DNA of 64,000 bases from the NCBI GenBank assembly GCA_963659855.1, contig CAVKVK010000001.1:18850-82849 (forward strand), written 5' to 3'. How positions within the stretch are numbered: the first letter of the stretch is position 1; the number at the start of each line of letters is the position of its first letter. This document shows positions 12,614-55,771 of the stretch, piece after piece. Origin of the DNA: Parabacteroides distasonis. Its GTDB lineage: Bacteria > Spirochaetota > Spirochaetia > Treponematales > Treponemataceae. The notes beneath the pieces are model-generated. The model was not told where the DNA came from, searched no databases, and saw nothing but the letters and a program-made list of their open reading frames with translations. The position numbers and the translations under genes were made by a program.

Positions 12614-12817
12614 ATGGCTACAATAATGGAAAAGGATGTTCTCTTGGAGCTTGTATCTTACAGCCTTGCCATGCTTCACAACAAAGAGGATTCAGCAGAC
12701 GTTTCTAAAAATATAAGAAGCCTGAGAGTTATGAAAAAAAATCTTATAAATACAGAATTCGACAAGATAGATTTCCAGAAAACTCGAAATCTGATACAAG
12801 GATTTGGGACAGTATGA
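12614..12817 (+). CDS. Small helical protein, probable antitoxin of the zeta toxin
   Basis: 67 aa with GGAGG RBS. Its stop overlaps the zeta start (ATGA). Confidence 0.55.
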   Translation: MATIMEKDVLLELVSYSLAMLHNKEDSADVSKNIRSLRVMKKNLINTEFDKIDFQKTRNLIQGFGTV

Positions 12818-13602
12818 ATTTTATAGCAGGTGAGCTTAACTGCTCAGAGCAGGAATTTTCAGAAAAGGTGAAAAAAGTCTGGAAAGATATTGTTGAGGAT
12901 GACCCGTTTATTTCAGTGGCAGAGGAATCTCCAGAGGGCTTTGTTCTCGGCGGCCAGCCGGGAGCGGGAAAGACAACGCTCACAAATATGCTTTCCGCAA
13001 GGCTTAACAAGAATATAATCTCAATATCAGGCGATGACTTCCGACCTTATCATCCGCATTTTGAGGAAATCCAGAAACTGTTCATGGAAGAGTCGCCGAA
13101 ATACACATCAAAATTTTCAGGAAGAATGACAGAAGAGCTGATAGACAAGGCTGTTTCTGAGAAATACAACATTGTTGTCGAGGGAACATTCCGCACTTCT
13201 GCGACACCTGTCTCAACCCTGAAAAAGATGAAGCAGGCCGGATACAGGACAGGAATCGCGATTCAGATATGCGACAAGGAGACCAGCTGGAAGTCATGCC
13301 AGGAACGCTATGAAAAGATGAAGGAGTCGAATCCGCTTCTTGCACGGACGGTTGACAAGGCTCACCACGACCTTGTCATAAGTCAGCTTCCAGAAACTAT
13401 AAAAGCAGTCTACGAATCAGGCTTTGCCGACAGTCTTGAAATCTATGAGCGTTTCCAGAAGGGGAATACGTTTACTGTAAGAAAAATATTTTCTTCCGAA
13501 GACGGAAAGCCTCTTGATGTCAAAATGATAGAGAATATCCTTAAAGGAAAATCCGGTCATAATAAAAAGGCAAGAGAACTTGATTCAGGCTTTGAACGCT
13601 AA
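12814..13602 (+). CDS. Zeta toxin family P-loop kinase
   Basis: LGGQPGAGKT Walker A, ISGDDFRPYHP, NIVVEGT, R.V...HHD. Confidence 0.9.
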   Translation: MNFIAGELNCSEQEFSEKVKKVWKDIVEDDPFISVAEESPEGFVLGGQPGAGKTTLTNMLSARLNKNIISISGDDFRPYHPHFEEIQKLFMEESPKYTSKFSGRMTEELIDKAVSEKYNIVVEGTFRTSATPVSTLKKMKQAGYRTGIAIQICDKETSWKSCQERYEKMKESNPLLARTVDKAHHDLVISQLPETIKAVYESGFADSLEIYERFQKGNTFTVRKIFSSEDGKPLDVKMIENILKGKSGHNKKARELDSGFER

Positions 13603-13610
13603 AACAGCCA

Positions 13611-14804
13611 ATGAAATCTCATTCAATAAAAGACATATTCTCCAGCCGTCCGACTAAGGAGCATTATGAGGAAGACCTCTACAAGGTAAGAAAAGTTCCG
13701 TACAAGAAGGACGACATGTGGCGGCTCTCAAAGCTGCTTTCTGCAAAACCGACACGTGTCGGTCGTGATGACGGCGGAAGATTCTCAGGCGGTGGACGCG
13801 GCAAAAATCTGCTCATAAATTCTGCAAGCCAGAAAGACCAGCGCGTGATGTTCAAGGTCTCGCACAGCTCCTCGATGCAGGCTCATGACAAGTATCTCTC
13901 AACATACATGCCGCAGGAAAACAAGAATGAAGTTCTGGACAAGCCAAGGCTTTTCGGCACTGAAAGCTCGGAGTACGAGGCCGCGAAAGTCCCGGAGCAT
14001 TTCAAATTCATAGTCTCTCCTGAAAACCAGAATGTGAACCTGAAAGTCCTTGCCTCTGAGTTTATAAAGAGAGTTGAAACCATGACCGGCTACAGGCTTT
14101 TTTGGCAGGGGGCTGTCCACACTGACACGGCGCACCGCCACGCTCACATCTGCATAAACGGAAAGGACAGGAACGGAAAGCGTGTCTATTTTCAGCCTGA
14201 GATGATCAGGCGGACTATGAGGGAGACCCTCTCGTACATTGCGACGCAGATGGTGGGAGAGCGGACGCAGCAGGAAATTCTTGTGGCGCAGAAAAACCTT
14301 GCTGTTTCAAGACGCTGGACGAAGCTTGACGAGGAGCTTGAGAAATATTCCGGAAAAATAAGTTCCCGTCTTCTAAGCCCTGAAATGCAGAACAGGCTCG
14401 CGTTTCTTTCTGAAATAAATCTTGCTGTCAGAAAAGCCGGATTCTACGAGCTAAAACCCAGATGGAAGGATGTTCTTGTTGCGACAGGACGGTACAACAC
14501 ATTCCTTGAGGAGTACCGGAAATCAGGCGGAAAACTTGAGCTTTACGCAGGCGGCGGAATCGGCGGAACAGTCGAGAATGTAATATCGTTCGACAAGGAT
14601 GAAAGCTGGAATGACGCCCTTGTCATAAGAACCGGAGAATCCCTGGTCTATGTTCCTGTGTGGCAGCTGAAGAAAGATGACCTTCTGGGAAAAACAGTCG
14701 AGATAAGGAACGGAACAAGAAGCCTCTCTCGGCAGGTTACGGACTCAAGCATACGTATTGTTGAGAGCACTAGAAGCGGAAGAAATCCCGGCAAGCGTGA
14801 ATAG
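13611..14804 (+). CDS. Conjugative relaxase (MOBP/VirD2-like HUH)
   Basis: QRVMFKVS...YL.Y (motif I), HFKFIVSPE (motif II), AVHTDTAHRHAHI (motif III). Confidence 0.85.
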   Translation: MKSHSIKDIFSSRPTKEHYEEDLYKVRKVPYKKDDMWRLSKLLSAKPTRVGRDDGGRFSGGGRGKNLLINSASQKDQRVMFKVSHSSSMQAHDKYLSTYMPQENKNEVLDKPRLFGTESSEYEAAKVPEHFKFIVSPENQNVNLKVLASEFIKRVETMTGYRLFWQGAVHTDTAHRHAHICINGKDRNGKRVYFQPEMIRRTMRETLSYIATQMVGERTQQEILVAQKNLAVSRRWTKLDEELEKYSGKISSRLLSPEMQNRLAFLSEINLAVRKAGFYELKPRWKDVLVATGRYNTFLEEYRKSGGKLELYAGGGIGGTVENVISFDKDESWNDALVIRTGESLVYVPVWQLKKDDLLGKTVEIRNGTRSLSRQVTDSSIRIVESTRSGRNPGKRE

Positions 14805-14918: not shown

Positions 14919-15629
14919 ATGAGTACTAAACAATATCCTCCTGCCGGCAAAGTCCAGACTCCGTTCTATCCGCAGCTTGAGCATTTCGACTGGATTACAG
15001 GACAGATCCGCAGGGAGAACCATATCCTGCGGATTGTGGCAGTCATCTCATGCCTCGCTTTTTTTCTCTCAATCGGAATAAGCCTGTACGCTGTCGCGCA
15101 GCCTGACTCTATTCCTGTGATTGTTACAATGAATGACTTCGGCCAGGCGTCCTATGTCGGGCCGGTCTCTCGAAAAAACTACCAGGACTTCAATGTTCCA
15201 GAAGTCGCAGTCCAGTATCAGGTGAAGGACTTCCTGAATCTCTACCACACACTCTCAACCGACAAGACAGTGATGAAAAAGTCTGTCAGCAAAATCTACC
15301 ACATTTTAACCTCAACAACAGCGTCAAAGTATTCGTCGCTTGTGAAGGAGGAGAAGCCTTTTGAGTATTTCGGCACACGGACAAGGGAAGTCTTTTTCCA
15401 GACCGAGCCGCTGAAGCTCTCGAAAGACTCCTACCAGATTGACTACCAGGTTATGACACGGCAGGTTTCCGGCTCAGTCGTGAGCAATGTTGCCTACCGC
15501 GCGGTCATAAGCGTTAAGACACTGCAGCCGAGCGAAGATGACATAAAGGACAACCCTCTTGGCATCTACATAACCGCATTCGACATGAAGGAAATAAACA
15601 CGAAAGTATATTCAGGAGAACCACAATGA
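14919..15629 (+). CDS. virB8: T4SS inner-membrane protein VirB8/TrbF
   Basis: Single N-terminal TM helix and C-terminal NPLGIYIT motif. Confidence 0.85.
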   Translation: MSTKQYPPAGKVQTPFYPQLEHFDWITGQIRRENHILRIVAVISCLAFFLSIGISLYAVAQPDSIPVIVTMNDFGQASYVGPVSRKNYQDFNVPEVAVQYQVKDFLNLYHTLSTDKTVMKKSVSKIYHILTSTTASKYSSLVKEEKPFEYFGTRTREVFFQTEPLKLSKDSYQIDYQVMTRQVSGSVVSNVAYRAVISVKTLQPSEDDIKDNPLGIYITAFDMKEINTKVYSGEPQ

Positions 15630-16711
15630 AAGCAAGGGTAAAAATCGACCGACACGTGTCGGTTCTGGCAATGACTTTTCTGCTTCTCTCATGCTCCACG
15701 ACAAGAGACCTTGAGAAGAGCGTGAACCAGACGGACTTTGACGACAGCGGCGCAAAATCGCTTGAGGAAGAGGAGCAGAAGAACGAGGCAGAGCTTAAAG
15801 GCTACTATGTGCAGGAGGAGCTGAAAGTCCAGAACATGGAGGACACTGTTGTGTTTGTTGACCGCCCTGTCTACATTCCCGAGCAGAAAGACGCTCCTGA
15901 GCTTGAGCGCGGATTTGAATCCGGATATGACGCTGTGAAGAAAAGCCTGAGGAAGGCGACTGTGAGGCCGGAGAACTACAAGAGCGGAACTTTCTTCTAT
16001 CAATATAATGAAAATCTTGTGTACGAGATTTATGCCCAGCCGTACCATCTTACGGACATTGTCCTTGAGCGCGGCGAGACTGTGAAGGGAAATCCGTTCT
16101 TTTCAGAGGATGAGAGCGTGTGGGAGCTTACGGCAGGTGTCTCGATTGACACGGAGACAGGCGAGGAAGTGCAGCATTTTTTTGTGAAGCCTGCGTACTC
16201 AAAGCTGGACTCAAGCCTGATTATCATAACCGACCGGCGTGTCTATCATCTGCGTGTAAAATCCTTTGCGGACACGCACATGGCGATTGTCAAATTTACA
16301 TATCCTGATAAGCGGAATTTCTATGCGAAAAGCACAGCGGAAAAAAGCCGTTCCGTCGAGAACGACTTCATAAGAATCTCGAATCCTGAGCTATTGTCTT
16401 TTGACTACAGGATGAAATATTCGATGTTCAAGAAGCCTGAATTCCTGCCCAAGCGTGTCTACGATGACGGACAGTCAACATACATTCAGGTTGACGACAT
16501 TGTGCTTCAGAAAAAGCTTCCTGTCCTGTTCAATGAGAAGAACGAGATTGAAAACTATTCTGTGAAGAAGAACATCTTTGTTGTTCCGCGCCTTGTGAAT
16601 AAAATCACTCTCCGGCTTGGAAAGCAGAAAGTCGTGATAGAAAAGAAAAAGATAAGCCAGAAAATTGCGGAAAAAATCGCCGCGGAAGAGGAGACGCAAG
16701 TTGGAAAATAA
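15626..16711 (+). CDS. virB9: T4SS core protein VirB9/TrbG (lipoprotein signal)
   Basis: Lipobox LLSC; LTDIVLERGE, IITDRRVY, PKRVYDDGQSTYI, LPVLF. Confidence 0.85.
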   Translation: MKARVKIDRHVSVLAMTFLLLSCSTTRDLEKSVNQTDFDDSGAKSLEEEEQKNEAELKGYYVQEELKVQNMEDTVVFVDRPVYIPEQKDAPELERGFESGYDAVKKSLRKATVRPENYKSGTFFYQYNENLVYEIYAQPYHLTDIVLERGETVKGNPFFSEDESVWELTAGVSIDTETGEEVQHFFVKPAYSKLDSSLIIITDRRVYHLRVKSFADTHMAIVKFTYPDKRNFYAKSTAEKSRSVENDFIRISNPELLSFDYRMKYSMFKKPEFLPKRVYDDGQSTYIQVDDIVLQKKLPVLFNEKNEIENYSVKKNIFVVPRLVNKITLRLGKQKVVIEKKKISQKIAEKIAAEEETQVGK

Positions 16712-18098
16712 TATCGATGAGGATGAAAACCTTGAGCTTGACGCATCTTCTGTTGACCTGAACGACGAGATTGAGAGCGAGGACGATGAGCTTCCGCCAC
16801 CAGAAGAGGAAAAAGACGAGGCGCGCGAGCTTAATGTCGGGAATATACTTGCGCTTATTTTTATCGGGGTCGCGGTGATTTTCCTTATCGTGATGGCGGC
16901 AGGCTCTGCAAAGTCAAAGAAGAAAGTCCAGAGCCGGGAGCTAGACAAGTCAGGAAGCAAGACAGTCGTTGAATTCAATGAGAGGACAGAGAAGGCTCCC
17001 GAAGTAAAGGAGAATGTGGAGCAGATTTTTGGGGAAGAGAAAAAAGAGGAAAAGCCTATGAGCGAAAAAGACGCAGACACTGTTCTTTCCACACTGCCGC
17101 CTGAGCTTCAGAGTGGAACTGCTCCTGTTACGCCGGTCGGAAGCCGCTCCTCCTCATCCGCAAAGTCAGACCGTCCGGACACAAGGAACTCGAAATCGCC
17201 CAGAAAAATCGAGGGAATCGCAGGGCAGAGCTATGCGGCTGCAAACGCAAACTCCAACATTGTGAGCGCGGTCATGAACGGAAATTTTCCGCAGACATCT
17301 TCCTCGTCAAGAATGACCAAGGAGGAATACATCGCGCAGCAGATGCAGCGCACTCAGCAGATTCAGAATTCGCTGTACGGCTCAGGCGGAAGCTACGGCG
17401 GCACAAACCAGAGCCAGAGCGCAGCTTACCAGTCCAACCGCGAGGAATTTTTCAATAGCCAGGGTAGCGGAACTGGAAACGGACAGTTCCTTCCGTACAA
17501 CACAATCTGGGACGGAACGATTATCTCGGCCTCGCTTGAAACGGCGATAAACACAGACAATCCCGGCGTTGTGATTGCACGAGTGACGCAGAACGTCTAT
17601 TCAAGCTATGACCATTCGCTTCTTCTGATTCCGCAAGGCTCGCTCCTTTACGCTACCTACAACAGCTCTGTCAGTTACGGGCAGGACAAGGTGCAGGTGG
17701 CATGGAATCTTCTTATACGCCCTGACGGCTACAGAATCACATTGGGCAACATGAACGGAGTTAGTGCGCAGGGGGTGAGCGGATACAAGGGAAAAGTCTC
17801 GAACCATCCGTGGGCTACTATGAAGGCGCTGGGAATGATTGCAGTCTACTCTATGATTCAGACCGAGATGTCAAAGAGCATAAACAGCCAGAACAACGAG
17901 TATATACAGAACGCGATGACAGATGTGTGGACGCAGTCGTCGAAAATCGGAAACAAGATTATCGACCGCGCGCTGGACATAAAGCCGACAATCGCTGTCC
18001 CGCTCGGAAAGGAAATCAAGATTATCACGAATGTTCCGCTTGAGCTTCCTCCGTGCAAGGTGAGCCAGGCCACAAGAAAATATGTAAGGACGCGATAA
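16701..18098 (+). CDS. virB10: T4SS core protein VirB10/TrbI
   Basis: TM helix, disordered linker, then GTIISASLETAINTDNPG...ARVTQNVY...LIPQGS...NH...IKPTI. TTG start follows GAGGAG. Confidence 0.9.
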   Translation: MENNIDEDENLELDASSVDLNDEIESEDDELPPPEEEKDEARELNVGNILALIFIGVAVIFLIVMAAGSAKSKKKVQSRELDKSGSKTVVEFNERTEKAPEVKENVEQIFGEEKKEEKPMSEKDADTVLSTLPPELQSGTAPVTPVGSRSSSSAKSDRPDTRNSKSPRKIEGIAGQSYAAANANSNIVSAVMNGNFPQTSSSSRMTKEEYIAQQMQRTQQIQNSLYGSGGSYGGTNQSQSAAYQSNREEFFNSQGSGTGNGQFLPYNTIWDGTIISASLETAINTDNPGVVIARVTQNVYSSYDHSLLLIPQGSLLYATYNSSVSYGQDKVQVAWNLLIRPDGYRITLGNMNGVSAQGVSGYKGKVSNHPWATMKALGMIAVYSMIQTEMSKSINSQNNEYIQNAMTDVWTQSSKIGNKIIDRALDIKPTIAVPLGKEIKIITNVPLELPPCKVSQATRKYVRTR

Positions 18099-32357: not shown

Positions 32358-32518
32358 AAGGAGGGTTTTAGGAAAACAGATTTTCAAGGCTTACGAACAG
32401 GAATGTTTTTATGAGGCTCGCCTCATGCACGAATAGAAATTTTTTGCCTTTTTTTGAACAGAAATTGAGAACACGAACAGGATTCTAAAATTAAACCCAG
32501 GACATAAAGGAGTATTTT

Positions 32519-32944: not shown

Positions 32945-33008
32945 CAGAAAACGGTGGCAGGAGAAATCCTGCTGTCTGTATGAATCTTGATTTTTCTTGG
33001 AGGAGAAT

Positions 33009-35848: not shown

Positions 35849-35873
35849 AGGCAAATCATAAAACGGAGTTCAT

Positions 35874-36839: not shown

Positions 36840-36859
36840 TGCAGACGGAGGTGTGATTT

Positions 36860-43515: not shown

Positions 43516-44253
43516 ATGGCAGATGAACGAGAAAATCTTGAGCTTTTTTCAAGGCTTGCCGCTGTTCTTGACGAGGGAACTGTCTACACGGCGAGCAATA
43601 AGATGCTTGGGGAAATTCAGCTTAGGCATGGAAACAAGTCAACCGGTCTTGTGCATATCATAAACCGCCGTTATGAGGAGCGTGTCTTAAACAAATCTGT
43701 TCAGATGCCTCTGGAGGATGCGCAGAAAGAAATCACTGCAATATGCTTTCTTGTAGCGGACAGCCTTAACAAAGGAGTTGCATCACAAACTCCACGCGGA
43801 AACTGGGAAATAGAAAAAGGCGGAATAAAAGCAATCATCAATAAAGACAGAGAAGGAAAATTTGTTCTTACAGGATTTGATGACAAGAAAAACAAGGCGG
43901 AAGCGACAGAATCCATAAAAGCGGGAATCGCAAATTATGGCTACACGCCTGAGTTTCTCGATATGTACGCTCAGGTGGGAGCTGTCATTGCTTCCTATGG
44001 GCATAGTACATCACAAACTCCACAAAAGTCAAATGAAAATTCTGGGCAGAATTTCCTTGAGGGCTGCGTAAAGATTGAAGTGAACGGCAAGGAGCGTGAA
44101 TGCAAAAACGGCGTCCTTGAGGGCTTCAAGAATGCTGTCAAGCTCGTTGACCGGCTTATGGATGTTAACCACCAGCTTGCGGACGAAAACGAAAAGCTAA
44201 GAAACCAGATTCACAATCAAAACAAAAACAAGAAAACGGACATTGAGAGGTAA
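43516..44253 (+). CDS. PBECR (barnase/colicin E5-like) nuclease-domain protein with conserved C-terminal tail
   Basis: G...GLVHII..R...FVLTGFD. Paralogous to the 57240-57640 domain. Ends KKTDIER. Confidence 0.6.
   Translation: MADERENLELFSRLAAVLDEGTVYTASNKMLGEIQLRHGNKSTGLVHIINRRYEERVLNKSVQMPLEDAQKEITAICFLVADSLNKGVASQTPRGNWEIEKGGIKAIINKDREGKFVLTGFDDKKNKAEATESIKAGIANYGYTPEFLDMYAQVGAVIASYGHSTSQTPQKSNENSGQNFLEGCVKIEVNGKERECKNGVLEGFKNAVKLVDRLMDVNHQLADENEKLRNQIHNQNKNKKTDIER
43885..43998 (-). ncRNA. Candidate embedded antisense sRNA B (three-stem junction)
   Basis: TTGACT (44027-44032), 16-nt spacer, TGTACT (weak -10). Stems GGAAGC-GACAG/CTGTC-GCTTCC, CCATAA/TTATGG and CCTGAG/CTCAGG. Confidence 0.5.
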
Positions 44254-44257: not shown

Positions 44258-45190
44258 ATGACAAATTTTGCTTCGGACTGGAAGAATTTCAACTCGAACG
44301 GACTGAGCGCGGAACAGTTTTTCTATGACCAGCTGTATAAGTCGTTTGCTGAGAACACAAAAAACGGAACGCTGCCGTTTTTCAGCAGAGAGCCGGATTC
44401 TGTTCCTAGGGAGCTTTCCACTGGAAAAATCATAAACGATGAGAATCTTATTGTTTTGGAGCAGGTTGCAGCCAGAAGAGGCTACAAGTCCAATGTCTGG
44501 ATTTACGGAAACGAGCTTAACCGCATCCAGAAGGAGACCGGACCTCTCAACTGGAAAAGGAACGCCTCTCCTGTTCTGTGCCAGACAAAATATTTCGGTG
44601 CGACACATCTCAACGAGCAGAATCTTTACATCTCGGAAGGCGGCTCAAAACAGAAGAACCAGTATCTGTACAACATAGACTCTCTTGACGAGCGTTCACG
44701 CAAGGCGGTGCTCAAATATTACGAGCGGACGCAGGAAGTGAACAGCGCATATCAAAAAGAGAACCTGAAATCGTTCATGTCGAACTGCCTTGAAAATCCC
44801 GGACACAATGAGAATTTTGCGAAGGCGCGTGAGCGTGTGAAGAAATACAGCAGCATTGACGGAATTGATTTTTCCGCCGCAGTTGACTGCCATTTCAAGC
44901 ACTGCCTTCAAAATTCCGTTGGCAACGGACTCAAGGACAACAGGGATGCAAACAGGAATTCATGCTACCAGCAGTGCATGGAGCTTGTGAGGAAAGTCGA
45001 GAGCGGAGAGTACAAGCCCTATGAAGCCGGACGGAAAATCGCACGCGCGCTTGAAAGCGGAACTGAATTCCAGAGGATTGCGGTCGCGAAAAACTACAAC
45101 CTTGAGAACGCAAAGAAAATCGAGGAGCTGAAAGTCGCCGAGGCGAACATAAACAGGCCTTACAGACGTCGCTCAGACATCGAGCGGTAA
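44258..45190 (+). CDS. ArdC-N-like domain protein
   Basis: GTLPF...P..LSTGK....EN...L......GYKSN.W pattern. Ends RRRSDIER. Confidence 0.55.
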   Translation: MTNFASDWKNFNSNGLSAEQFFYDQLYKSFAENTKNGTLPFFSREPDSVPRELSTGKIINDENLIVLEQVAARRGYKSNVWIYGNELNRIQKETGPLNWKRNASPVLCQTKYFGATHLNEQNLYISEGGSKQKNQYLYNIDSLDERSRKAVLKYYERTQEVNSAYQKENLKSFMSNCLENPGHNENFAKARERVKKYSSIDGIDFSAAVDCHFKHCLQNSVGNGLKDNRDANRNSCYQQCMELVRKVESGEYKPYEAGRKIARALESGTEFQRIAVAKNYNLENAKKIEELKVAEANINRPYRRRSDIER

Positions 45191-45220: not shown

Positions 45221-48200
45221 ATGGCTAACATACATTTTGAAATTTTTGACAATGCGGATTTTGGAAACAAGAACATCCGTTTTTCTGAAGCGCCTGCACA
45301 GGAGCAGAGAGATTTCCTAAAGCAGAACGGATACAGCTTTACCACACAATACGGCGGCGTATGGTATCCGCGAACGCAGGAAGCGAAAGACAGAAATGCG
45401 GACTTCGTGAATGAATTTGCGGAAAAGTTTTATCCTGAAACCAGCAAAAAAACACAGAGCGATATGATTGACCAGATTGCAAAACAGGCGCTGGAAAAGA
45501 ATTCGGCGGAAAATGATTCTCACAGCAATGATGACAGAATCGCATATCTTGAAAATCTCATCGCCGAGCTGAAAGAGGAAAGAAGACACGACCTTGAAAG
45601 AATTTCACGTCTTGAGGCTGCCCTTGAAAATCAGAATGAAAAAGATACAAGGCTTGAGATGCAGATTGAGCAGGACGAGCTTAACAGTGAGGCTGAATGG
45701 GAAAAGGAAAACACTCTTACAGACGAGGAAGAAAACGCATACATTGAAAAACAGTCCGAAACCAATATTTTCTCAGAAAAAATAGAAATCACTTCTGGAA
45801 TGATGGATGCCTTGTACGAGGCAGCTGAAAAAGAATCTATGTCAGACGAGCCGCAGGCTGAGAAAGAAATTCTTCATGGCCAAGAAGAGCCTGATGAAGA
45901 TGACTTGACTGTCTCACCAAAAGAGCTTGCAGCCGCAAAATCAGTGCTTCCGACAGTCCAGTATGTCTCGACATTGAAATTCGCGCAAGGCGAGGAGAGA
46001 GAATTCTTTGTCCACAAGATTAAGGAAATTGCGGCTGCGGTGGAAAATGCTCCAAAAATCAATGAGACGGACGGTCTTGAAGAACACCGGATTGTTCTCC
46101 GGTATTTCCATCCGAGCGGAACCCAGTCATTTGTTACAGAAATCGGAAGGGACGGAAACGCATATGGCTTCCAGTGTCTTAATGATGACTGGGAGAACGC
46201 GGAGTGGGGCTATCTTAATCTTGACGAGCTGAAGAATATCCGCGGAATGGAAGTTGACTTTCATGTTCCGGCCGGAATGACTGTAGAAAAGTTTATACAA
46301 AAGGAAAATGCAGAGCAGTATTCAGCGGAAAATGAAACGTCAGAAATTCCAAATGAGGCAAGAATTACATGGAACGATATTTTGCAGGTTGCGGAAGGCT
46401 CTCATTGGAACGACGAGGCGAATAGCGTTTACAACAATGCAAGAAATCAGCTTGCGGAATACGCAAAAAATCTTGGAGTTGACATTGAAAACTCAGAAAG
46501 TCCGGAAGAGTCTGCTGAAACTTTTGCGGCAGCACATGGAGAAATTTCATTTTCAAAAGACGGAAGCCTTGTAATTGATGAAATTGAAAACTCTTCTGCC
46601 AGGGATTTGGAAAAAAAAGGAAATCATGAGAAACCAGTTTCTGAGTTTTCTGCTGATGAGGCAAGCCGACTTTCGGAAGAAAAATATGGATTTTACTTTG
46701 AATATAGCGATGATGAAGAAGTCGCGGATATTTATTCTGCAAAAGACGGAGATTTTGTCGGAAGCTATGGTGAGGATGGTTTCGGCTATGCTGACGATTT
46801 GAGCGGCAATGCACCGTCAACAAAAATTCCGGACGAGAATTTCCGTGAGGTGCTGGAGCTTGCGGAAATTTTCTATCATAAAAAATCAGAAGAGTATGAA
46901 AATCTGATTGAAGCCGAAAACGGCCAGATGATGACTTCTGCTGAAGCATACGAATGGAATGAAGAGCAGAAAATGCAGCATTCTCAGGAGAATGATGAGC
47001 GAGAAGCAGAAGAAGCAAACAAAGATTTTGAACTAACAAAAAGACTTAATGAAATCGTCTCTGAAATAAAGAATTCAGATTTTACACTTGAATCAAAATA
47101 CGAAAATGGAAAGCACGAAATTGTTCTTATAAACAAGGACGGAGCTGAAATTTTCAGTGCGCGAGAAAATGACAACATTGTGATTCCTGTGGAGCATACA
47201 ATTGCGGCCTGGGCAAACGATGAGGCTTCTGAAAAAGCAAAAAGCCTTGCCGATGAATTTTTCAATCTGGTCTGCGAGGACAAAATCCGCGGCGGCGACT
47301 ATGTGAATGCGGTTTTCAAAAAAGAAGAAACTGAAATCTCTCAAAAAGAAATTGAGCAGGAAAAAGCATCTATTCAAAGAAAAATCCAGCAGTTAAAAGA
47401 TGAACTGAATAATCCAGATAATCAGAAAGGCGGAGCTTATTATGATGAGCAGCAGGATTCTCAAGTAAAAGAATACCTAGAAACTCTTGAGAACTTGACG
47501 GACGAAGATATAAAGAATCAGATTCTTTGGAAAAAAGAAACCCAGAAAGAAAATCAAGAAACTCATAATCGTGTTGTTGAGCAAATGATGGAAGAGAAAG
47601 AGAAAAATGAAACTCCTCAAGAAGGTGAACTTTTTTCTTATAATGAAAAGAATCCGATATATTCTGTGGGCAATAAGGAAACACAAACAGAAACCGCAAT
47701 TCAACCGACTGGCAATCTTTCTGAAAATGTCAAAAAACTAGGAAGCCTAAAAACTATCTCAGAGGCAGACGACATAATCGAAAAAATCAAGTCTTCTGGA
47801 TTTGATATTCTTTCAACAGAAAGCAGAATAATCATATTCGATGAAGACAAATACTATGATTTTAATCGTGCAACCAGCTATTTCAACTATGAAACAAAAA
47901 AAATTGAATTTGACCTAGACAGAAGAAATTTGAATGAATGGGATTTTAGGGATTATATAAAGAACGGTCTGAAAATCACAAAGCGAATGAAGGACTTTGC
48001 AAAAATCGAGAACCGTAATGTTTCAGAAGAAGAAAAGGCAATAGACAAGACTGAGAAAAATCAGGCAGCGGCTGAAAATCCTGAAACAAACTATTTTGTA
48101 AAATCAACAGCGGAGTTCTCTCAGTTTGAAGATTTTAAACCGATTACTGGACTTACCGCAGACGAGGCTGTTGCAAAATATTCTGAATTGCAGCAGCAGA

Positions 48201-51200
48201 ATATCGATTGTGGAATTGGTATCAATATTAAAGGTGATACAGTTTTTGATGATGAATGGGCAAAAGGTCTAACTGTTCTTGTTCGTGCAGATGGAAAAGA
48301 TACATTAAATATTTACGGTGCTATAGCCGTAAAAAGACTTAGTGAAAACAACCAGCACTCATTAAATGTTCTTTCTGCTTTTGAAAATCTTTACAATGCG
48401 GCAAAAGAAGCAGGTCTTGAAATTGAAGACGCTCCATACATTGAAGAAAAGAAACAGGAACTTGCAATCACGTCAAATTCGTTTGAGTCAGTTCTTGAAG
48501 AAAAAAATGTTGATAACGTTTCTGAAGAATATTCTCCAAAATATCCTGAATATGCAAAAAATCGTTTTGTGCTGGAAACTGGACACAAAGACGGCTGGGC
48601 TATAAATAACAATCATCTTGTAATATGGGATAAACTTTTGAATCGAAGCGCTCGTTCTGGCGGATTTTTTAATAATGAACAGGGAAGAGCCGCTGGTGAA
48701 AAAGAACTTGCAGAAAAAATAGAAGCAGTCGCAAAAGAAGAAAACGCAGCACTTGAAAGAACCTATGAAGGCAATGGTGTTTATTCTTGCCAGTTGCATA
48801 GACCTTATACAATTACAGATACAAGAGCCACCACTCACGAAATGTTTTTTGTGGAATTAAAAAATATTTCTGATAAAACTTCTGGTCTTATTGTATCGGG
48901 AATACGAGAAAGCGAAACTGGAATGATAAAAAATGATGCAATAAATTTTGCTAAAGAAATTGACTATAGTTTTGAGCAAGGAACTTGCATTAAATTCAAT
49001 CCTGTAGACCTTTATAAAACGGCAGCCCAAGTAGCAAGCCAAGAAAACATCAATCTGACAAAAATAGCTATTCTTGCAGAAAAAATGGGAACACAGATTG
49101 TTGTGCAGGAAGGCGACGACATATCAAGATATGCGTTTGCATTGGATTTTGCAAAGAAACACAATCTTCCAGTTTATTTTGAGGATAATGAAATAGCACA
49201 CAAGATTGCCGAAAATATTGCTGATGTAAAATTCTTTCAGAACCAGTCAGACTTGATTAAGCTGCTAGAAAATACTGAACAGCAAAATAAAAACGAACAG
49301 TCCAAGAAAAAATCATCAAAATCCAGCCAGAAAAAAATCCGCGAGCAGTGCCGTGAGATTCTCAAGAAGCCTGATTCTGAAATCACCGAAGATGACAAGA
49401 AGATTCTTGCCCAATACGAGGGCGGTGGCGGGCTTGATGAGGAGAAACGCACAAATGCGGAAGTCCTCAACGCTTTTTATACGCCGGGCAGCCTTATAGA
49501 TAAGGTCTGGACTCTTGTTGACGCTTATGCTCCGGATGCAAAATCTGTCCTTGAGCCGTCAGCTGGAGTCGGACGTTTTGCAAAAGACCGGCCGGACAAT
49601 GAATTCACAATGTATGAGCTTGACGAGACTTCCGCAAGAATCAACAAAATTCTTCACCCGGAAGCGAATGTGATTCAGGGTGCTTTCCAGAAGCAGTTCC
49701 TTGATGACGGCGAGCGTTTCCTTAAAATCGGATACGAGCAGCCTAAGCATGATGTTGTAATCGGAAACCCGCCTTATGGAAAATACAACGACAAGTATAA
49801 AGGTCTAGGCGAGGGAAAAGAATTTGACCGCTATGAGGAATATTTCATTTCACGTGGACTGGAAGCCCTCAAAGATGAAAAATCTGTTCTTGCGTTTGTT
49901 GTTCCGTCAGGATTTCTAGACACTGCCGATGACAGGCAGAAGAAAATCATCGCCTCAAAAGGTGAAATTTTAGACGCATACAGGCTGCCGGAAGGAACTT
50001 TTGAGACAACAGAAGTCGGAACTGACATTCTGATTATGCGGAAAAAAGAAGGCATTGACGATAGGGAAAATATTTCCAGCGAGCTTTTGTCAAACGGAGA
50101 ATGGTTCAAGAACCATCCAGAGAAAATCTTGGGCGAAGTGAAAACCCGCACAAACCGGTTCGGAAAGGAAGAAAAGTATGTCGCAGCCCACGAGGGGCTT
50201 TCCATCCAGGAAGAACTGAACAAGATTGACAGTTTTGTTGCTGATATAAAAAAGGCTAATCAGACTGAAAAATCAAAAGAACCAGAATTCAGTTCTGCAG
50301 AGAAAAAAACAGAAATCATTTCAAGCCCGGAAGTTCTTACAGATGAATTTGCTGAAAATATTACCAATTTTAAAAATTCTCTCAACAGCTATTTTGAGAA
50401 AGGAATTCGCCCGGAAAACGACCGTTTTGTAATCGGACAAACTCCTCTTGTTCTACAAAAAATTGGCAGTGATGTTACAGAGGTTACTGTTCCAGTATCT
50501 GTAATAAAAAAGTCAGTAGAAACTCACGGATTATCACAAGATGAAATCTTCAGTTCGGTTGCAAAAATGTATAATCCAGTTCTTGTTTTTGATTCAGATA
50601 AGACTGCGACAGAAAATAAGGTAGATTCAAAACTTATTCTTACAGATGTGTTCAAGGATGAAAACCCTATTGCACTTGCGGTCAACACAAATTCCACGGT
50701 TGATATAAACAATCGAGGTTTGACAATTGAAGTTCAAGATATTCGTTCTATTCACGACAGAACTCTAATTGCAAAAAATGGAACTGATTTGATTCAGAAA
50801 TGGACAAATGACGGACTTTGCAGATATGTGAACGACAAAAAAATATCCGATTGGAGTACCGTCGCAAGGGTACAATTCCCTGTTGAGCTCCTCCAATCGG
50901 ATAGTCAAAATATACTCACAAACTCTGCTCTTGTCAACAGTAATTTCTCAGAACAAGCCCAGTTTAAAGAAAGTGAAAAGACAGAGCCTAAAAAACAAGA
51001 ATCCCCAGACATGAAAAAAAGAAGGCGGAATATCTCAAAGAAAAAGGGCGATGTCATGAACTCAGAGGAATTCTCCCATCTGTACGGACGCGACTTTGAC
51101 GAGCGAGAATTTCCAATCTGGAAGGCGACAGACTGGCAGGGCAATATCGACCTCTCAAAACTTTCCAGCGGTGACATTCAGTATCTTTCTGAAAGCGGAA

Positions 51201-54200
51201 AATATGTTGAGAAGAACATCGGCGAATGGACCCACAGGGAGCTTTTTGCTAGCGGCGATATTTATGAAAAACTCCAGGAACAAAGAGAGCTTCTTGAAAA
51301 ATCCGGCGGAAACCAGATTTTTGCGGATAACATACGGCTGCTTGAATCAATAAAAAAAGAGCCGCTTGAAATTTCCAGAATTCACTTTGGCGTGAAGACA
51401 TCTCTCGCCGAAAGCTTCAATATTGGGCATATCGATGCGGAAGGAAACAAAGTCGAACTGAATCTTCAGGAATCATTCATTCTTTGGGCGCAGAATTCGA
51501 GACTTTCAGACCAGAAATGGAGGGGCGACATTGACTTTGCGACAGCGAATATCTCGCGCGAGGAGCTTGGAGAGGAACTCGGCTTCTATGACATCGTGAA
51601 CTACATAGACGGAAAGCCTGTGAAGGCGGAAGCTGTCAGAGGCTGGCGCACTTGGGATATGAACGAGGAAGAGAAGGCTGCTGAAAAAGCGGAGCGCAAA
51701 AAGGAAGCCGACTTGAAACGACAGGCAAGAAGCGACACTGCAAACAGGCTTTTTGACCGTTATATCCACGAAGGACTTTCTGAACCTGACAAGGCAAGGC
51801 TCTCTTCTGAATACAACCGCCGGTTCAACTCTTACGTAGCACCTGACTACTCAAAGCTGCCTCTTTTTGTTGACGGAATGAGCGCATACAAGGGCGAGTC
51901 AAAATTCAAACTGTACGACCAGCAGATAAAAGGAATCTCATTCCTTTGCAACAAGGGAAACGGAATTCTCGCCTATGATGTCGGAGTCGGAAAAACAGCC
52001 GCTGGAATTGTCGCGACAGTGAACCAGATTCAGACAGGAAGAAGCAAACGGCCGCTTATCATTGTTCCGAACCAGGTCTATTCAAAATGGTATACAGACA
52101 TAAGGCAGCTTTTCCCGAATATAAAAGTGAACGACCTCTATAATTTCGGGAAAGATTCTGTTGAAAAATATATTGACCCTAAAAATCCTCACTGCCTGAA
52201 TATTCCAGAAAACTCAATTTCGCTGTGCACATACGAGGCTTTGAAGAATATCACTTTCAACGACGAGTCCTGCGAGAACGAGCTTTATGAGGATTTCTCA
52301 AGTCTTCTGAGCGCGGACATGGACGGAAGCACAAGGAACAATGCTGAAAACTCCGACAAAATCAAGGGTGTAATCGGTGCCGCAAGCCATGTAAAGGACT
52401 CTGGATATTTCTTCTATGAGGACTGCGGGTTTGACAATCTTACAGTGGACGAGGCGCACAACTTTAAGAATCTGTGGGTAGTCCCACGCCCAAAGAAAAA
52501 GGGCGAGTCAAACGAGTATGCAGGAATTCCAAGCGGAAAACCGTCCTCTCGCGCGCTGAAAATGTATGGAATGACGCAGCTGACACAGCGGCACAACGAC
52601 GACAGGAATGTGTTCATGCTGACAGCGACTCCGTTCTCAAACAGTCCGACAGAAGTCTACACAATGCTTTCCTATGTCGGCCGTGAGCGCTTGAAGCAGG
52701 CAGGAATCACTTCGCTTCGCACATTCTTTGACGAATTTGCACAGACAAAGCAGGAACTTGGCGTAACCTCAGCCGGAAACATCGACACAAAGCAGGTTAT
52801 GAAAAGCTGGAAGGAACTTTCCGCACTGCAGAATATTCTTACAGAATTTATTGACAAGGTTGACGGCGAGGAAGCTGGAATAATTCGCCCGAACAAATTC
52901 ACACACGTGAAGCCTCTTGATATGTCTGACCTGCAGAAAGAAATGCGCGAGATTGATGAAGAGCGCATGGCAGAAATAAAAGAAGGCAACAGCGCGGCTG
53001 TGATTGTCGCAATGAACAATATGCGGCTTTCCTGCGTCGCTCCGGCTCTTGCGAATCCGGCTATGTATCCTGGCATTGAGCTTCCTCCGCTTTCAAAACT
53101 TGTCGAAACTTCTCCAAAACTGAAATTTGTATGCGATGCAATAATCGATATGTACAAGGGCAACCCAGAAAAAGGTCAGTTCATGTATGTTCCGCTTGGA
53201 AAAGAAAGCCACGGAATCATAAAGGATTACCTTATTGCGCACGGAGTGCCAAAGGAAGCCGTAGAAATCATAAATGGAGAAGTTAACAATACGCCGGAAA
53301 AGAAAGAGAAAATCACTTCCTGCTTCAATGACGAGAAAAATCCGTGCAAAATCATTATCGGAGGACGGAACACAGCCGAAGGAATCGACCTTAACGGAAA
53401 CAGCTTTGTCATGTACAACTGCTCGCTTGGCTGGAATCCGAGCGAGACAATCCAGGCGGAAGGAAGAATCTGGAGGCAGGGCAACCTTCAGGGAAATGTC
53501 CACATTGTCTATCCTGTAATGAATGATTCAATTGACTCTGTCCTTTACCAGAAGCACGACGAGAAGCGAAGCCGCATAAACGAGCTTTGGAATTACAAGG
53601 GCGATTCTCTTAATGTGGAGGACATCAATCCGGAAGATCTGAAGCTTGACCTTATAAAAGACCCGCAGAAGAAGGCTAAGCTTATCTTGCAGGAAGAAAC
53701 AAAGGAAGCCCGTGCGGAGCTTTCAAAACTGAACCTAAAAATCAGGTCTTTTGACGAGATAATTGAAAAGCGCAAACAGCTTGAGCTTGACTTCTCGAAT
53801 GCGAAGGAATCCGTTGACTATCGGAAGAATCAGATAGAGTCCTATAAAGAAAGCGGTCTTGATGTTCCTGAATGGATAAAGTCAGAGATTAAAGACTGCA
53901 ACAAGAAATTTGCAAAGGCAGAAACAAGTCTTGAAAAAGTCAATGAAAAACTTCTCTCTCTTAAAATCACGGATCCAGAGAAAGAAACGGAATATATCCA
54001 CAGCTTAAACAGTCAGAGGCACGCCTGCGAGGAAAAAATTAGACATACAAAAATGACCCTGCCGCAGATTCTGAAAAAACTGGAGATAGAACGGATGGAG
54101 CAGAAACTCATTGAATATCCTGTTGAGAAACAGCGAGAAATTCTTGAGGCGGATATTCTGAACAATCTCCGGCCGATGAAAGAGGTTGAATATGAGATTA

Positions 54201-55771
54201 AGACAATGCGCCATGAGGCTATGCTTTCAGAAAAACTCAAGGCCGGTGAAATCTCTAGGAGTGATTACGAGCTTTACAAAAATGCCGGATATGAAAAATA
54301 TGAGAAATGGCTGAACGGCGAGATTGAATCGCTGGAAGAAACCACTGTAAAAGATGAGGTTTCCAATGTGGCTGCTGAAGTGATTTCAGGACAAGACAAG
54401 ACTGTATCTGTTCAAAACGAAAATGTCCCAGAAAATCCAACAGTAAAAAATCCTGAGCTGAAAGACCTGAAAAAAGCCACTGAAAAAACAGAGCCTGAAA
54501 AGCAGGAGAACCAAGAAATGAATTCATTCTACTCAGACCCAGGAAGCCTTTTCTTTGACTCCAAGTTTGCCGTGCACTCGATTGAAAACGAATACAGAAA
54601 ATCCGCTCCGTATGACGACTTCTTGATAACAGAACGCCAGCTTACAGAATCAGAGATGAAGCGCGACGAGATAATATTCCCGGTTCTTAACGGAAAAGAG
54701 ACAGGAATGTACAAGGCTTTCAAGGATTTTGCCGAGCATGGTGTTTTTGACATCCAAGGAAAGCATGTTGAGCTTGACGATTCAGGAAGAATTTCCCAGA
54801 CAGGCTGGAATCAGCTTCAGTCAGCGATGGAAATCTACAGAAACAAGCAGTTCGAGACATTCCGCTATGTTCTCATTGACCATGAAAACGGAGAGATAAA
54901 GGACCAGCTTGCAGTAAAGTCGTATTCTCCAAACAGTTGCGCTCTCACTACACCTGACTTAAAGACAATAAAGCAGGTCTTGACGCGCGCAGAGGAGCTT
55001 GACTGCATGATTGTGGCGGTTCACAACCATCCGAGCGGAAATACAGCTGAAAGCTCGTTTGATGTGAAAACGACTGAATCCTTGATGAGAAACTGCACAA
55101 AGGAAAACGGATTCTGCCGTTTTGCAGGACACATAATTCTTGACCACGACACGTTCAACCTTTACACGCCAGAAAACGGATGGAACGAAAAACTGAATTC
55201 AAATGCCTATGAAAATCTTGAGGATGAGCTACTGAACAGTAATTTCGTATTCTCAAAGGATTATGTCGGATATACCTGGCAGCTTGAAAATGTCGCAAGG
55301 AAGATAAACGACAGGAACAACTGGAATGACAATTTTATTCCTGTTGTCTTTGCTGATTCAATGAACAAGGTTTCTGGAATCAAGCTGTACGACAAGTCAT
55401 TTTTTGACAACGAGCCTCAGAAAATTAGAAACGAGCTTCAGTTCTCAGGTCTTGAGGCGAATTCTGTAAAGGCGTTCCCAGTCATCACAAAGAATTTTGC
55501 GGAAACGATGTCAGCTGTTGACGAGCTTCTTTTCGAGGACAAGCTGAAAAATCTTGTGGAGAACAGCGCGTTCATAGACGCAGCCTTGCCGGAATCAACT
55601 GTAACGGAAAAATTCAACATTCTTCCTGGAAGACAATACTTTGATGTCCACAGTGCGAAGATGAGAAATCCAGACATCGAGGCGACCTGGCAGACAAGAA
55701 TAAATCCGGCGCTTTTCAGCGAGCCGGAACAGAATGTAATGCGCAAAAAAGAAGTCGCATTTGAAAGATAA
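45221..55771 (+). CDS. Giant polyvalent DarB-like protein: DUF2958-like, N6-adenine MTase, MuF-C-like nuclease, SNF2 helicase and JAB/RadC domains
   Basis: AEWGYLNLDEL (~46200); VLEPSAGVGRF (~49550) and GNPPY (~49765); IGQTP...HGL...IRSIH (~50430-50760); GVGKT, DEAH, TATP, QAEGRIWRQGN; HNHPSG...D...HII (~55020-55140). Confidence 0.85.
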   Translation: MANIHFEIFDNADFGNKNIRFSEAPAQEQRDFLKQNGYSFTTQYGGVWYPRTQEAKDRNADFVNEFAEKFYPETSKKTQSDMIDQIAKQALEKNSAENDSHSNDDRIAYLENLIAELKEERRHDLERISRLEAALENQNEKDTRLEMQIEQDELNSEAEWEKENTLTDEEENAYIEKQSETNIFSEKIEITSGMMDALYEAAEKESMSDEPQAEKEILHGQEEPDEDDLTVSPKELAAAKSVLPTVQYVSTLKFAQGEEREFFVHKIKEIAAAVENAPKINETDGLEEHRIVLRYFHPSGTQSFVTEIGRDGNAYGFQCLNDDWENAEWGYLNLDELKNIRGMEVDFHVPAGMTVEKFIQKENAEQYSAENETSEIPNEARITWNDILQVAEGSHWNDEANSVYNNARNQLAEYAKNLGVDIENSESPEESAETFAAAHGEISFSKDGSLVIDEIENSSARDLEKKGNHEKPVSEFSADEASRLSEEKYGFYFEYSDDEEVADIYSAKDGDFVGSYGEDGFGYADDLSGNAPSTKIPDENFREVLELAEIFYHKKSEEYENLIEAENGQMMTSAEAYEWNEEQKMQHSQENDEREAEEANKDFELTKRLNEIVSEIKNSDFTLESKYENGKHEIVLINKDGAEIFSARENDNIVIPVEHTIAAWANDEASEKAKSLADEFFNLVCEDKIRGGDYVNAVFKKEETEISQKEIEQEKASIQRKIQQLKDELNNPDNQKGGAYYDEQQDSQVKEYLETLENLTDEDIKNQILWKKETQKENQETHNRVVEQMMEEKEKNETPQEGELFSYNEKNPIYSVGNKETQTETAIQPTGNLSENVKKLGSLKTISEADDIIEKIKSSGFDILSTESRIIIFDEDKYYDFNRATSYFNYETKKIEFDLDRRNLNEWDFRDYIKNGLKITKRMKDFAKIENRNVSEEEKAIDKTEKNQAAAENPETNYFVKSTAEFSQFEDFKPITGLTADEAVAKYSELQQQNIDCGIGINIKGDTVFDDEWAKGLTVLVRADGKDTLNIYGAIAVKRLSENNQHSLNVLSAFENLYNAAKEAGLEIEDAPYIEEKKQELAITSNSFESVLEEKNVDNVSEEYSPKYPEYAKNRFVLETGHKDGWAINNNHLVIWDKLLNRSARSGGFFNNEQGRAAGEKELAEKIEAVAKEENAALERTYEGNGVYSCQLHRPYTITDTRATTHEMFFVELKNISDKTSGLIVSGIRESETGMIKNDAINFAKEIDYSFEQGTCIKFNPVDLYKTAAQVASQENINLTKIAILAEKMGTQIVVQEGDDISRYAFALDFAKKHNLPVYFEDNEIAHKIAENIADVKFFQNQSDLIKLLENTEQQNKNEQSKKKSSKSSQKKIREQCREILKKPDSEITEDDKKILAQYEGGGGLDEEKRTNAEVLNAFYTPGSLIDKVWTLVDAYAPDAKSVLEPSAGVGRFAKDRPDNEFTMYELDETSARINKILHPEANVIQGAFQKQFLDDGERFLKIGYEQPKHDVVIGNPPYGKYNDKYKGLGEGKEFDRYEEYFISRGLEALKDEKSVLAFVVPSGFLDTADDRQKKIIASKGEILDAYRLPEGTFETTEVGTDILIMRKKEGIDDRENISSELLSNGEWFKNHPEKILGEVKTRTNRFGKEEKYVAAHEGLSIQEELNKIDSFVADIKKANQTEKSKEPEFSSAEKKTEIISSPEVLTDEFAENITNFKNSLNSYFEKGIRPENDRFVIGQTPLVLQKIGSDVTEVTVPVSVIKKSVETHGLSQDEIFSSVAKMYNPVLVFDSDKTATENKVDSKLILTDVFKDENPIALAVNTNSTVDINNRGLTIEVQDIRSIHDRTLIAKNGTDLIQKWTNDGLCRYVNDKKISDWSTVARVQFPVELLQSDSQNILTNSALVNSNFSEQAQFKESEKTEPKKQESPDMKKRRRNISKKKGDVMNSEEFSHLYGRDFDEREFPIWKATDWQGNIDLSKLSSGDIQYLSESGKYVEKNIGEWTHRELFASGDIYEKLQEQRELLEKSGGNQIFADNIRLLESIKKEPLEISRIHFGVKTSLAESFNIGHIDAEGNKVELNLQESFILWAQNSRLSDQKWRGDIDFATANISREELGEELGFYDIVNYIDGKPVKAEAVRGWRTWDMNEEEKAAEKAERKKEADLKRQARSDTANRLFDRYIHEGLSEPDKARLSSEYNRRFNSYVAPDYSKLPLFVDGMSAYKGESKFKLYDQQIKGISFLCNKGNGILAYDVGVGKTAAGIVATVNQIQTGRSKRPLIIVPNQVYSKWYTDIRQLFPNIKVNDLYNFGKDSVEKYIDPKNPHCLNIPENSISLCTYEALKNITFNDESCENELYEDFSSLLSADMDGSTRNNAENSDKIKGVIGAASHVKDSGYFFYEDCGFDNLTVDEAHNFKNLWVVPRPKKKGESNEYAGIPSGKPSSRALKMYGMTQLTQRHNDDRNVFMLTATPFSNSPTEVYTMLSYVGRERLKQAGITSLRTFFDEFAQTKQELGVTSAGNIDTKQVMKSWKELSALQNILTEFIDKVDGEEAGIIRPNKFTHVKPLDMSDLQKEMREIDEERMAEIKEGNSAAVIVAMNNMRLSCVAPALANPAMYPGIELPPLSKLVETSPKLKFVCDAIIDMYKGNPEKGQFMYVPLGKESHGIIKDYLIAHGVPKEAVEIINGEVNNTPEKKEKITSCFNDEKNPCKIIIGGRNTAEGIDLNGNSFVMYNCSLGWNPSETIQAEGRIWRQGNLQGNVHIVYPVMNDSIDSVLYQKHDEKRSRINELWNYKGDSLNVEDINPEDLKLDLIKDPQKKAKLILQEETKEARAELSKLNLKIRSFDEIIEKRKQLELDFSNAKESVDYRKNQIESYKESGLDVPEWIKSEIKDCNKKFAKAETSLEKVNEKLLSLKITDPEKETEYIHSLNSQRHACEEKIRHTKMTLPQILKKLEIERMEQKLIEYPVEKQREILEADILNNLRPMKEVEYEIKTMRHEAMLSEKLKAGEISRSDYELYKNAGYEKYEKWLNGEIESLEETTVKDEVSNVAAEVISGQDKTVSVQNENVPENPTVKNPELKDLKKATEKTEPEKQENQEMNSFYSDPGSLFFDSKFAVHSIENEYRKSAPYDDFLITERQLTESEMKRDEIIFPVLNGKETGMYKAFKDFAEHGVFDIQGKHVELDDSGRISQTGWNQLQSAMEIYRNKQFETFRYVLIDHENGEIKDQLAVKSYSPNSCALTTPDLKTIKQVLTRAEELDCMIVAVHNHPSGNTAESSFDVKTTESLMRNCTKENGFCRFAGHIILDHDTFNLYTPENGWNEKLNSNAYENLEDELLNSNFVFSKDYVGYTWQLENVARKINDRNNWNDNFIPVVFADSMNKVSGIKLYDKSFFDNEPQKIRNELQFSGLEANSVKAFPVITKNFAETMSAVDELLFEDKLKNLVENSAFIDAALPESTVTEKFNILPGRQYFDVHSAKMRNPDIEATWQTRINPALFSEPEQNVMRKKEVAFER
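50837..50903 (-). ncRNA. Candidate embedded antisense sRNA C
   Basis: TTGACA (50932-50937), 17-nt spacer, TATATT (50909-50914). Perfect 13-bp terminal stem 50844-50856/50891-50903, followed by U7. Confidence 0.65.

Follow-up and report, generated by a model that had tools for sequence, protein, structure and literature searches.

A C-terminal tail shared by cargo proteins of a spirochaete conjugative element is probably an export tag

Why do a toxin, a kinase and a giant multidomain protein encoded by one conjugative element end in nearly the same residues? The question is raised by a 64,000-nucleotide stretch of assembly GCA_963659855.1 (the window; contig C1:18850-82849 in a 2.4-Mb genome), in which such an element runs from position ~7,900 to beyond the window end and, by Pfam scan, encodes an IS30-type transposase, a topoisomerase, a MOBP relaxase, VirB8/9/10, the coupling protein VirD4, VirB11/2/3/4/6 and single-stranded-DNA-binding proteins (Table 1). 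The original prediction held that a basic tail ending in [IF]ER marks toxins and polyvalent proteins of the element for export through its type IV secretion system (T4SS). It further held that toxins delivered without their antitoxins could kill or arrest recipients in which the element fails to establish. We find that the tail is real, restricted to cargo, selected at the protein level, present on the kinase and zeta toxin inside elements and lost outside them; it is probably an export tag, and the evidence from gain and loss is unusually clean.

Every C-terminus quoted in the original prediction is present at its place. Gene calls give 5 of 51 element genes that end in [IF]ER, compared to 1 of 1,844 in the host (p=7e-8 by Fisher's test), where the composition of the element predicts 0.02; the frequencies in element and host, whose comparison had been proposed as a check, are not equal. 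By its motif we take the sole host case (C41:14538) to be an RsmG-type methyltransferase. A sixth [IF]ER-type case, the KEIER of open reading frame (ORF) 30089, sits behind an in-frame TAG and is therefore missing from the translated product without read-through; the sequence is there as claimed, but behind a stop in this genome, and genes at the same position in G155, G057 and G170 (G and C numbers label genomes and contigs) are intact and end in KEIER. ORFs 30089 and 43516 are counted as one case, because they share a C-terminal module. The description of the tail as basic holds only weakly. Net charge over the last 20 residues ranges from 0 to +3 across the six tails, with the 3516-aa protein at 0, and charge of at least +2 is found in 36 of 53 cargo tails of the element family and 524 of 1,844 host proteins. 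The area under the receiver operating characteristic curve for separating tails from host C-termini was 0.74 by charge and 0.89 by low hydrophobicity.

To place these endings in a wider family, flanks were taken for 26 of 47 VirD4 matches, picked by score and contig size, and genes were then called. Orthologues exchange caps (ER, SY, SR, CF, GY): the ArdC-like protein ends in SMTY, GVER, AMER, EMSR, EICF or GYSR, and the polyvalent protein in AFER, CMGY, GMEY, DIER or GYSR. Because orthologues swap caps in this way, the families converge on one tail class, which is wider than [IF]ER: a linker that is polar and often basic leads into [G/D/E/S]-hydrophobic-[E/S/G]-[R/Y/F], at times with one residue more. 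A pattern drawn up with the data in view fits 39 of 53 ends in cargo, 1 of 127 in VirB/D4 proteins and 16 of 1,844 in the host; a hydrophobic residue stands third from the end in at least 42 of the 53 cargo tails, and the last residues of ORF 43516 are predicted to be loosely structured in one model (predicted local distance difference test, pLDDT, 47). To avoid circularity, a position model was fitted to seven of the cargo families and tested on the one left out, using 20 elements whose VirD4 is at least 50% identical and omitting the truncated 30089 and one frameshifted half-gene. By this leave-one-family-out procedure, the host top 1% took in 39 of the 53 cargo tails that remained after de-duplication, and 1 of 127 VirB/D4 proteins. 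When frozen and applied to ten stretches outside training, the model passed 21 of 27 cargo proteins and none of 58 from VirB/D4, together with 5 of 65 genes bearing other labels and 9 of 106 that bear none. These trials are not independent, as the elements are kin and two of the stretches belong to elements that had supplied other genes for training. Of the six cargo misses, five are relaxases and one is a fragment of a broken polyvalent gene. Thus, structural T4SS proteins lack the tail, as predicted. Looser tails had been proposed for three further proteins, of which ORFs 42655 and 55792, scored with their own family left out of training, belong to the class (host top 0.2-0.4%) and the relaxase does not (41st percentile).

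The kinase can be compared inside and outside elements. It retains the catalytic motifs of CtkA, which is its only PDB match (E 3.5e-10), and HipA-like homologues are present in 74 of 338 genomes, at 82 places altogether, from which 36 copies, chosen by score and contig size, were examined. All six copies in close elements, three of them in training and three held out, carry a scoring extension of 12-15 residues (NIER, NIER, EWER, LWER, LWEQ, SWTE), whereas none of 28 copies outside elements, meaning those with no core gene in the fetched flank (at most 10 kb per side), scores; five of the 28 are a longer outgroup form. On a kinase tree built without the tail, the tail label needs six changes, at least five of which are forced by supported branches, and the tail thus follows residence in an element over at least five independent changes. 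Remnants indicate that the change is loss: the G057:C3 kinase has a stop right before an intact LKKHDKTIER, copies ~90% identical terminate at several differing junctions, and the G153 and G136 kinases retain the start of a sister's extension and then diverge. Among database kinase homologues, taken irrespective of genomic context, 15 of 120 score.

For the zeta toxin, we examined 15 of 16 places. Ten element copies keep the tail, nine of them in the top 1% and one at 5%; two stranded close copies have lost it, and three copies with zero or one core gene nearby retain it. Database homologues score in 36 of 92 cases, again regardless of context.

Could these endings originate in DNA rather than in protein function? 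The tail of ORF 30089 runs into the start of ORF 30943, and its coding sequence includes AAGGAG, as would fit final codons shaped by the ribosome-binding site of the gene that follows. However, all six Arg codons are used among 45 genes with a hydrophobic-E-R end, and this ending is found on 19 of 527 uncoupled genes, 25 of 383 coupled genes and 1 of 523 coupled host genes. Because all Arg codons occur and uncoupled genes carry the motif at a similar rate, we reject the imprint, and with the enrichment given above and the success on held-out stretches, chance or imprint retains next to no probability as an explanation. Tails could instead have spread by recombination among cargo genes with no function of their own. 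Some spread of this kind is visible, since the module of ORFs 30089 and 43516 is common by descent and two G137 genes have ~30 bases in common across tail and stop, and recombination has been given a suggested role for the tail of the Helicobacter pylori tfs3 integrative and conjugative element (ICE) (PMC5536186). As a full account, however, recombination is highly improbable: between families the tail DNA differs at synonymous positions, orthologue caps vary within one class, and loss follows exit from the element. The tail is kept at the protein level.

Because it is kept on toxin genes inside elements and is mostly missing outside, we consider it likely that the tail is a conjugative T4SS export signal on cargo. 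A terminal peptide kept only while its gene resides in an element calls for an element-encoded reader, and the coupling protein is the best candidate because its known signals are terminal, positively biased, hydrophobic at -3/-4 and unstructured (PMC5536186). In the mechanism we propose, eight unrelated or partly related soluble proteins ending in a polar linker and four-residue cap would be recognised through the cap by the element's VirD4 and would pass through the secretion channel into the recipient, where the methylase-helicase, ArdC-like and BECR-fold cargo may aid establishment of the arriving DNA. This element's relaxase would use another route, either an internal signal, as is known for relaxases elsewhere (PMC11288057), or a MobC-like partner. 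A stability or degradation tag setting the half-life of hazardous or early-acting proteins would also be short, terminal and loose, and would suit toxins and nuclease-fold proteins whose level matters, but we judge it distinctly improbable: a host protease would still read the tail outside the element, where none of the 28 kinases has it, and we saw no protease domain among the element genes scanned. Antitoxins are the usual protease targets, and the zeta antitoxin candidates are tail-less. It is also unlikely, if somewhat easier to reconcile with the data, that the tail docks proteins to a partner in the donor (relaxosome, coupling complex or other element hub), so that they gather at the transfer site or the excised circle and are not injected. 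MobC-like proteins, which are normally donor-side helpers, are clearly tailed in 7 of 16 cases, most relaxases (10 of 15) are tail-less, and the comparative results all need merely an element-encoded reader. Against donor docking, there is no evident task at the donor pore for a toxin, a kinase or proteins with a nuclease fold, and the analogous tails of CtkA and VbhT are tied to export by experiment (PMC5536186, PMC5675462).

Several observations weigh against export. The relaxase, the only substrate that must be transferred, is tail-less here and in most other copies, with 5 of 15 carrying the tail, and neither the relaxase nor the MobC-like protein scores in G155, G057, G170 and G439. A distant element type, with VirD4 ~38% identical, holds two kinase copies that fail to score, the zeta genes of G322 and G152 keep the tail with no core gene in their fetched flanks, and several contigs used to call kinases outside elements stop on one side. 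A replication-gene family also scores (3 of 5), probably due to a conserved folded end. In addition, the cargo families were picked after the original prediction had named them and the elements are kin, so the counts overstate independence, and the toxin rows of the database and context survey overlap with the held-out test. The export claim has gained comparative support, in that the tail is confined to cargo, maintained as protein and tracks the element, and it is weakened by the element's own tail-less relaxase. No hidden tail was seen in another frame in eight relaxase genes; the tailed MobC-like homologues include those of five elements whose relaxase fails. Prediction of a complex between VirD4 residues 113-715 and the 75-aa module and tail gave a score of 0.00, which is no verdict either way.

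Judged from their sequences, zeta and the 67-aa ORF that overlaps its start are a putative toxin-antitoxin pair in which the toxin is tagged. The zeta active site is intact in alignment to 1gvn and 2p5t, the 67-aa ORF is similar to the N-terminal part of five longer zeta homologues (E 4e-5 to 6e-3), and an epsilon-like ORF lies upstream of 14 of 14 zeta copies; on inspection, none of these ORFs ends in hydrophobic-E-R. Exported zeta would leave its tail-less antitoxin behind, and the recipient would be slowed or killed until the antitoxin gene was expressed there. Given export, such poisoning is plausible for zeta and doubtful for the kinase, because tail-less kinase copies persist at many chromosomal sites without a consistent antitoxin: among 32 loci we saw no recurring small ORF beside the kinase, and one locus has an epsilon-like ORF upstream. 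The killing step put forward in the original prediction therefore fits zeta, and not clearly the kinase. Its statement that the presumed antitoxins lack the tail likewise applies to the zeta candidate, whereas ORF 40460 was rejected as a HipA antitoxin on finding it conserved in elements with or without HipA. The idea that the antitoxin gene arrives last found no support, as the placement of zeta relative to the candidate origin of transfer (oriT) varies (beside the relaxase in six elements, past the topoisomerase in one, after virB6 in three). The transfer machine alone can kill recipients (PMC13717191).

The C-terminal module appears on varied proteins. ORFs 30089 and 43516 have their last ~70 residues in common and unrelated N-terminal parts, and a search of 1.84 billion representatives with the module returned 63 matches, 58 within 35 residues of the end and 38 with a scoring tail. 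Upstream of the module, 53 carriers scanned have PBECR1, PBECR2, PBECR3, MuF-C or LPD3 domains or nothing recognised, and none of the 53 has a Pfam match to XVIPCD, a domain that binds VirD4. A fold search with the module gave generic coiled-coil matches only and is uninformative on novelty. For ORF 43516, a BECR-type fold is indicated by Pfam PBECR1 (E 0.07), Atlas (0.93), a model at pLDDT 84 and a best fold match to a contact-dependent inhibition (CDI) toxin-immunity entry (Z 6.1, root-mean-square deviation 3.8, 93 aligned), and RNase activity is thus a prediction. A single-sequence fold of an intact 30089 orthologue reached pLDDT 46, and its N-terminal domain gave a weak extended alignment to a PBECR2 protein. 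The place behind virD4 (30089-30946; L002:2086-3635; L005:2107-2931) holds differing N-terminal domains on one module, is empty in many elements and has two tandem copies in G155; it is a polymorphic cargo slot. Two database proteins (P0245, P0252), one of which also has PBECR2, fuse a ComM/ChlI-type ATPase to the module, which would make a recombination helicase tagged cargo. ORF 45221, encoded beside the T4SS, combines methylase, MuF-C, SNF2, helicase C and RadC domains, and the 85-aa protein at 38941 is a candidate additional substrate that the original prediction overlooked. A broader scheme is tentative, and we lean against it as a whole: in it, the ICE family would convert resident toxin and kinase genes to injected effectors via a tail of 12-15 residues, polymorphic BECR-fold nucleases would have the ~70-aa module as their own, bipartite second signal, and every mating would poison the recipient unless the element is taken up and expressed.

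Tagged conjugative effectors, and with them the model of the original prediction, have already been published (tfs3 CtkA, VbhT, PMC5512222); the spirochaete element family, the gain and loss pattern and the C-terminal module are new. On the tfs3 ICE, CtkA, PZ39 and Fic have a common C-terminal tail, absent or divergent in homologues elsewhere, which was proposed as an acquired T4SS signal and whose deletion abolished the CtkA effect (PMC5536186); both systems have variable cargo on a VirB/D4 ICE and a related kinase whose tail is missing outside the element. The tfs3 tail is a 27-aa stretch, 67-78% identical between proteins, that ends in KRRR and was read out in human cells (PMC5536186), whereas the tails here, the 30089/43516 module excepted, have just the cap in common and no 27-aa KRRR-type stretch: a degenerate cap, hydrophobic-E-R or variants, is found on eight proteins with mostly no DNA identity between families, and the likely target is a bacterial recipient. 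VbhT of Bartonella is a toxin of a toxin-antitoxin pair with a C-terminal T4SS signal and was shown to enter recipients during conjugation; the same 2017 paper describes a predicted PezT toxin with a BID-like end in Chelativorans, proposes addiction of recipients during transfer and expects further cases with short charged tails (PMC5675462). As with VbhT, the zeta toxin domain here is intact and its adjacent antitoxin candidate has no signal, but the signal of VbhT, a BID domain, is almost the same as the one on its relaxase (PMC5675462), whereas here the tail is short and missing from the relaxase, whose end differs, and our Pfam scan of the element found no BID match. VirB/D4 signals of the Agrobacterium type lie at the extreme C-terminus with positive bias, hydrophobic residues at -3/-4 and little structure (PMC5536186, PMC11288057); the tail here is also extreme C-terminal, on soluble cargo and absent from machine subunits, but it is only modestly charged, its cap often includes an acidic residue, and the pattern in the last four residues is clear. 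Polyvalent proteins of conjugative elements have been proposed to be delivered along with DNA, and their methylase, SNF2, MuF-C/PBECR, ArdC-N, RadC and LPD3 domains recur here; the excerpts of PMC5512222 name no export signal, and the tail and ~70-aa module would supply one. Like the module, XVIPCD is one C-terminal domain on varied toxic N-terminal domains, in this case of the killing T4SS of Xanthomonas, which is described as being without relaxosome genes and oriT (PMC6536674), whereas the element here has a relaxase and moves. A different C-terminal effect is reported in PMC7584586. The literature covered contains no description that we found of the motif or the element family; supplements, such as the PMC5512222 alignments that possibly list the module as an uncharacterised domain, were outside its scope. 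Proteins travelling with conjugating DNA are mostly unknown, since short T4SS signals are hard to predict (PMC5675462), and this family, apparently a common mobile element family in the genus on which we found no literature there, offers a learnable tag, a list of eight substrate proteins and tail-plus and tail-minus kinase alleles ~90% identical, with which polyvalent-protein delivery (PMC5512222) and addiction of recipients by toxin-antitoxin toxins (PMC5675462) become directly testable.

Table 1. Features of the element in the window, with their C-termini and the basis of each assignment.
Feature	Position	Strand	C-terminus	Basis
IS30-type DDE transposase (HTH_38 + rve), left end	8135..9256	-		Pfam; same position in G057
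Type IA topoisomerase	9404..11485	-	tail-less	Pfam, tail score
Conserved non-coding block upstream of MobC-like gene	11690..11830	.		alignment of 7 elements
MobC-like gene by position (no family match)	11992..12564	+	borderline tail, top 1.7%	tail score
Epsilon-like antitoxin candidate, 67 aa	12614..12817	+	tail-less	overlaps zeta start
Zeta/PezT toxin	12814..13602	+	...KKARELDSGFER	Pfam; Walker A and catalytic Asp region retained
MOBP-type relaxase	13611..14804	+	...RNPGKRE, no tail score	Pfam, tail score
VirB8, VirB9, VirB10	14919..18098	+	tail-less	Pfam, tail score
VirD4-type coupling protein, presumed tail reader	27923..30070	+		Pfam
Cargo gene in variable slot after virD4, TAG-broken	30089..30946	+	module and ...HHEKEIER behind stop	TAG 30770-30772
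VirB11, VirB2, VirB3, VirB4, probable VirB5, VirB6	31380..38818	+	tail-less	Pfam, tail score
85-aa protein (weak DUF4177)	38941..39198	-	...WQNSISR	host top 0.2%
HipA/CtkA-like kinase	39208..40437	-	...KKRGTNIER	Pfam; catalytic-loop and Mg-binding motifs retained
ArdC-N-like protein (weak, E 5e-4)	42655..43401	+	...RSESMTY, tail variant	profile match, tail score
BECR-fold (PBECR1-like, predicted RNase) domain and C-terminal module	43516..44253	+	...NKKTDIER	profile, fold model
~70-aa C-terminal module: predicted beta-hairpin, long helix and tail	44026..44253	+		model, homologue search
310-aa protein, weak ArdC-N similarity	44258..45190	+	...YRRRSDIER	profile, tail score
3516-aa polyvalent protein	45221..55771	+	...MRKKEVAFER	Pfam
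1157-aa MuF-C protein	55792..59265	+	...RRNSMEISYS, tail variant	Pfam; internal region like ORF 43516

The element belongs to a family found widely in the genus, where 37 of 180 genomes have a VirD4 homologue at E<=1e-60; close homologues of the kinase bear the source label Treponema sp. Three close relatives are inserted at differing chromosomal flanks, flanks are unlike in the four genomes compared, and one relative (G155) is circularly permuted, indicating that the element moves. We saw no tyrosine or serine integrase in the element, and the IS30-type transposase is likely its integrase, which would make this an ICE that likely integrates through a DDE enzyme and is presumably ICE6013-like. 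The conserved block upstream of the MobC-like gene is a candidate oriT. A 1,978-aa protein (18226-24162) with a lipoprotein-like start and immunoglobulin-like domains, kept across the element family and duplicated in distant types, is a candidate mating adhesin.

The VirD4 protein itself has an acidic, Phe-containing C-terminal tail in most relatives and is followed by a conserved 144-aa protein (30943-31377) with weak ribbon-helix-helix similarity, a combination that we take to resemble a TraD-TraM pair. In the distant element type (L042, L045, L051, L052), small ORFs beside virB6 end in DYGYSR, DDDFGIPF, DDDFEIEF, DPIYSR and DDYEMCF, an acidic version of the cap that may be matched to another coupling-protein clade.

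At the kinase locus, a 16-bp direct repeat AGGAGACAAAAATGAA, comprising ribosome site and start, brackets the gene (approximately 39190-39205 and 40429-40444), and G057 and G170 have a single copy and no kinase at the same site, as for a cassette entering or leaving at the ribosome site. The neighbouring 40460-41200 is a conserved, tail-less gene of 246 aa with weak similarities to a helix-turn-helix at its N-terminus and to PemK/MazF (E 0.003) at its C-terminus. Two epsilon-like ORFs of G156 (L093:4708, L093:6567) bracket a HipA-like kinase in place of a zeta gene, a hint that antitoxins of the epsilon-like family may have more than one kind of toxin as partner. Zeta homologues P0162-P0168 and P0176, one labelled Neisseria and one Campylobacter, have long polar extensions ending in KPKL or RFKP, possibly lineage-specific export tails. 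Among four unrelated zeta plasmids inspected, endings that resemble the tail stand on two zeta proteins of Veillonella (NNGMSK, DKGFYK) and on a relaxase of Ligilactobacillus (EDWGMHL), and serve as a lead only; zeta proteins of Bacteroides and Ligilactobacillus plasmids do not score.

Just past the window end lie genes that, from sequence motifs, we take to be ParA- and ParB-like. A perfect 16-bp palindrome, ACCGACACGTGTCGGT, has 10 copies in the element and none in the rest of the genome (9388, 9990, 10164, 10829, 11580, 12539, 13748, 15648, 62571 and 66086, the last beyond the window on the same contig), and is presumably akin to a parS site for the ParB-like protein. It often lies within coding sequence (RHVSV); several sister elements hold 3-22 copies, and G163 bears another palindrome with the common core CACGTG.

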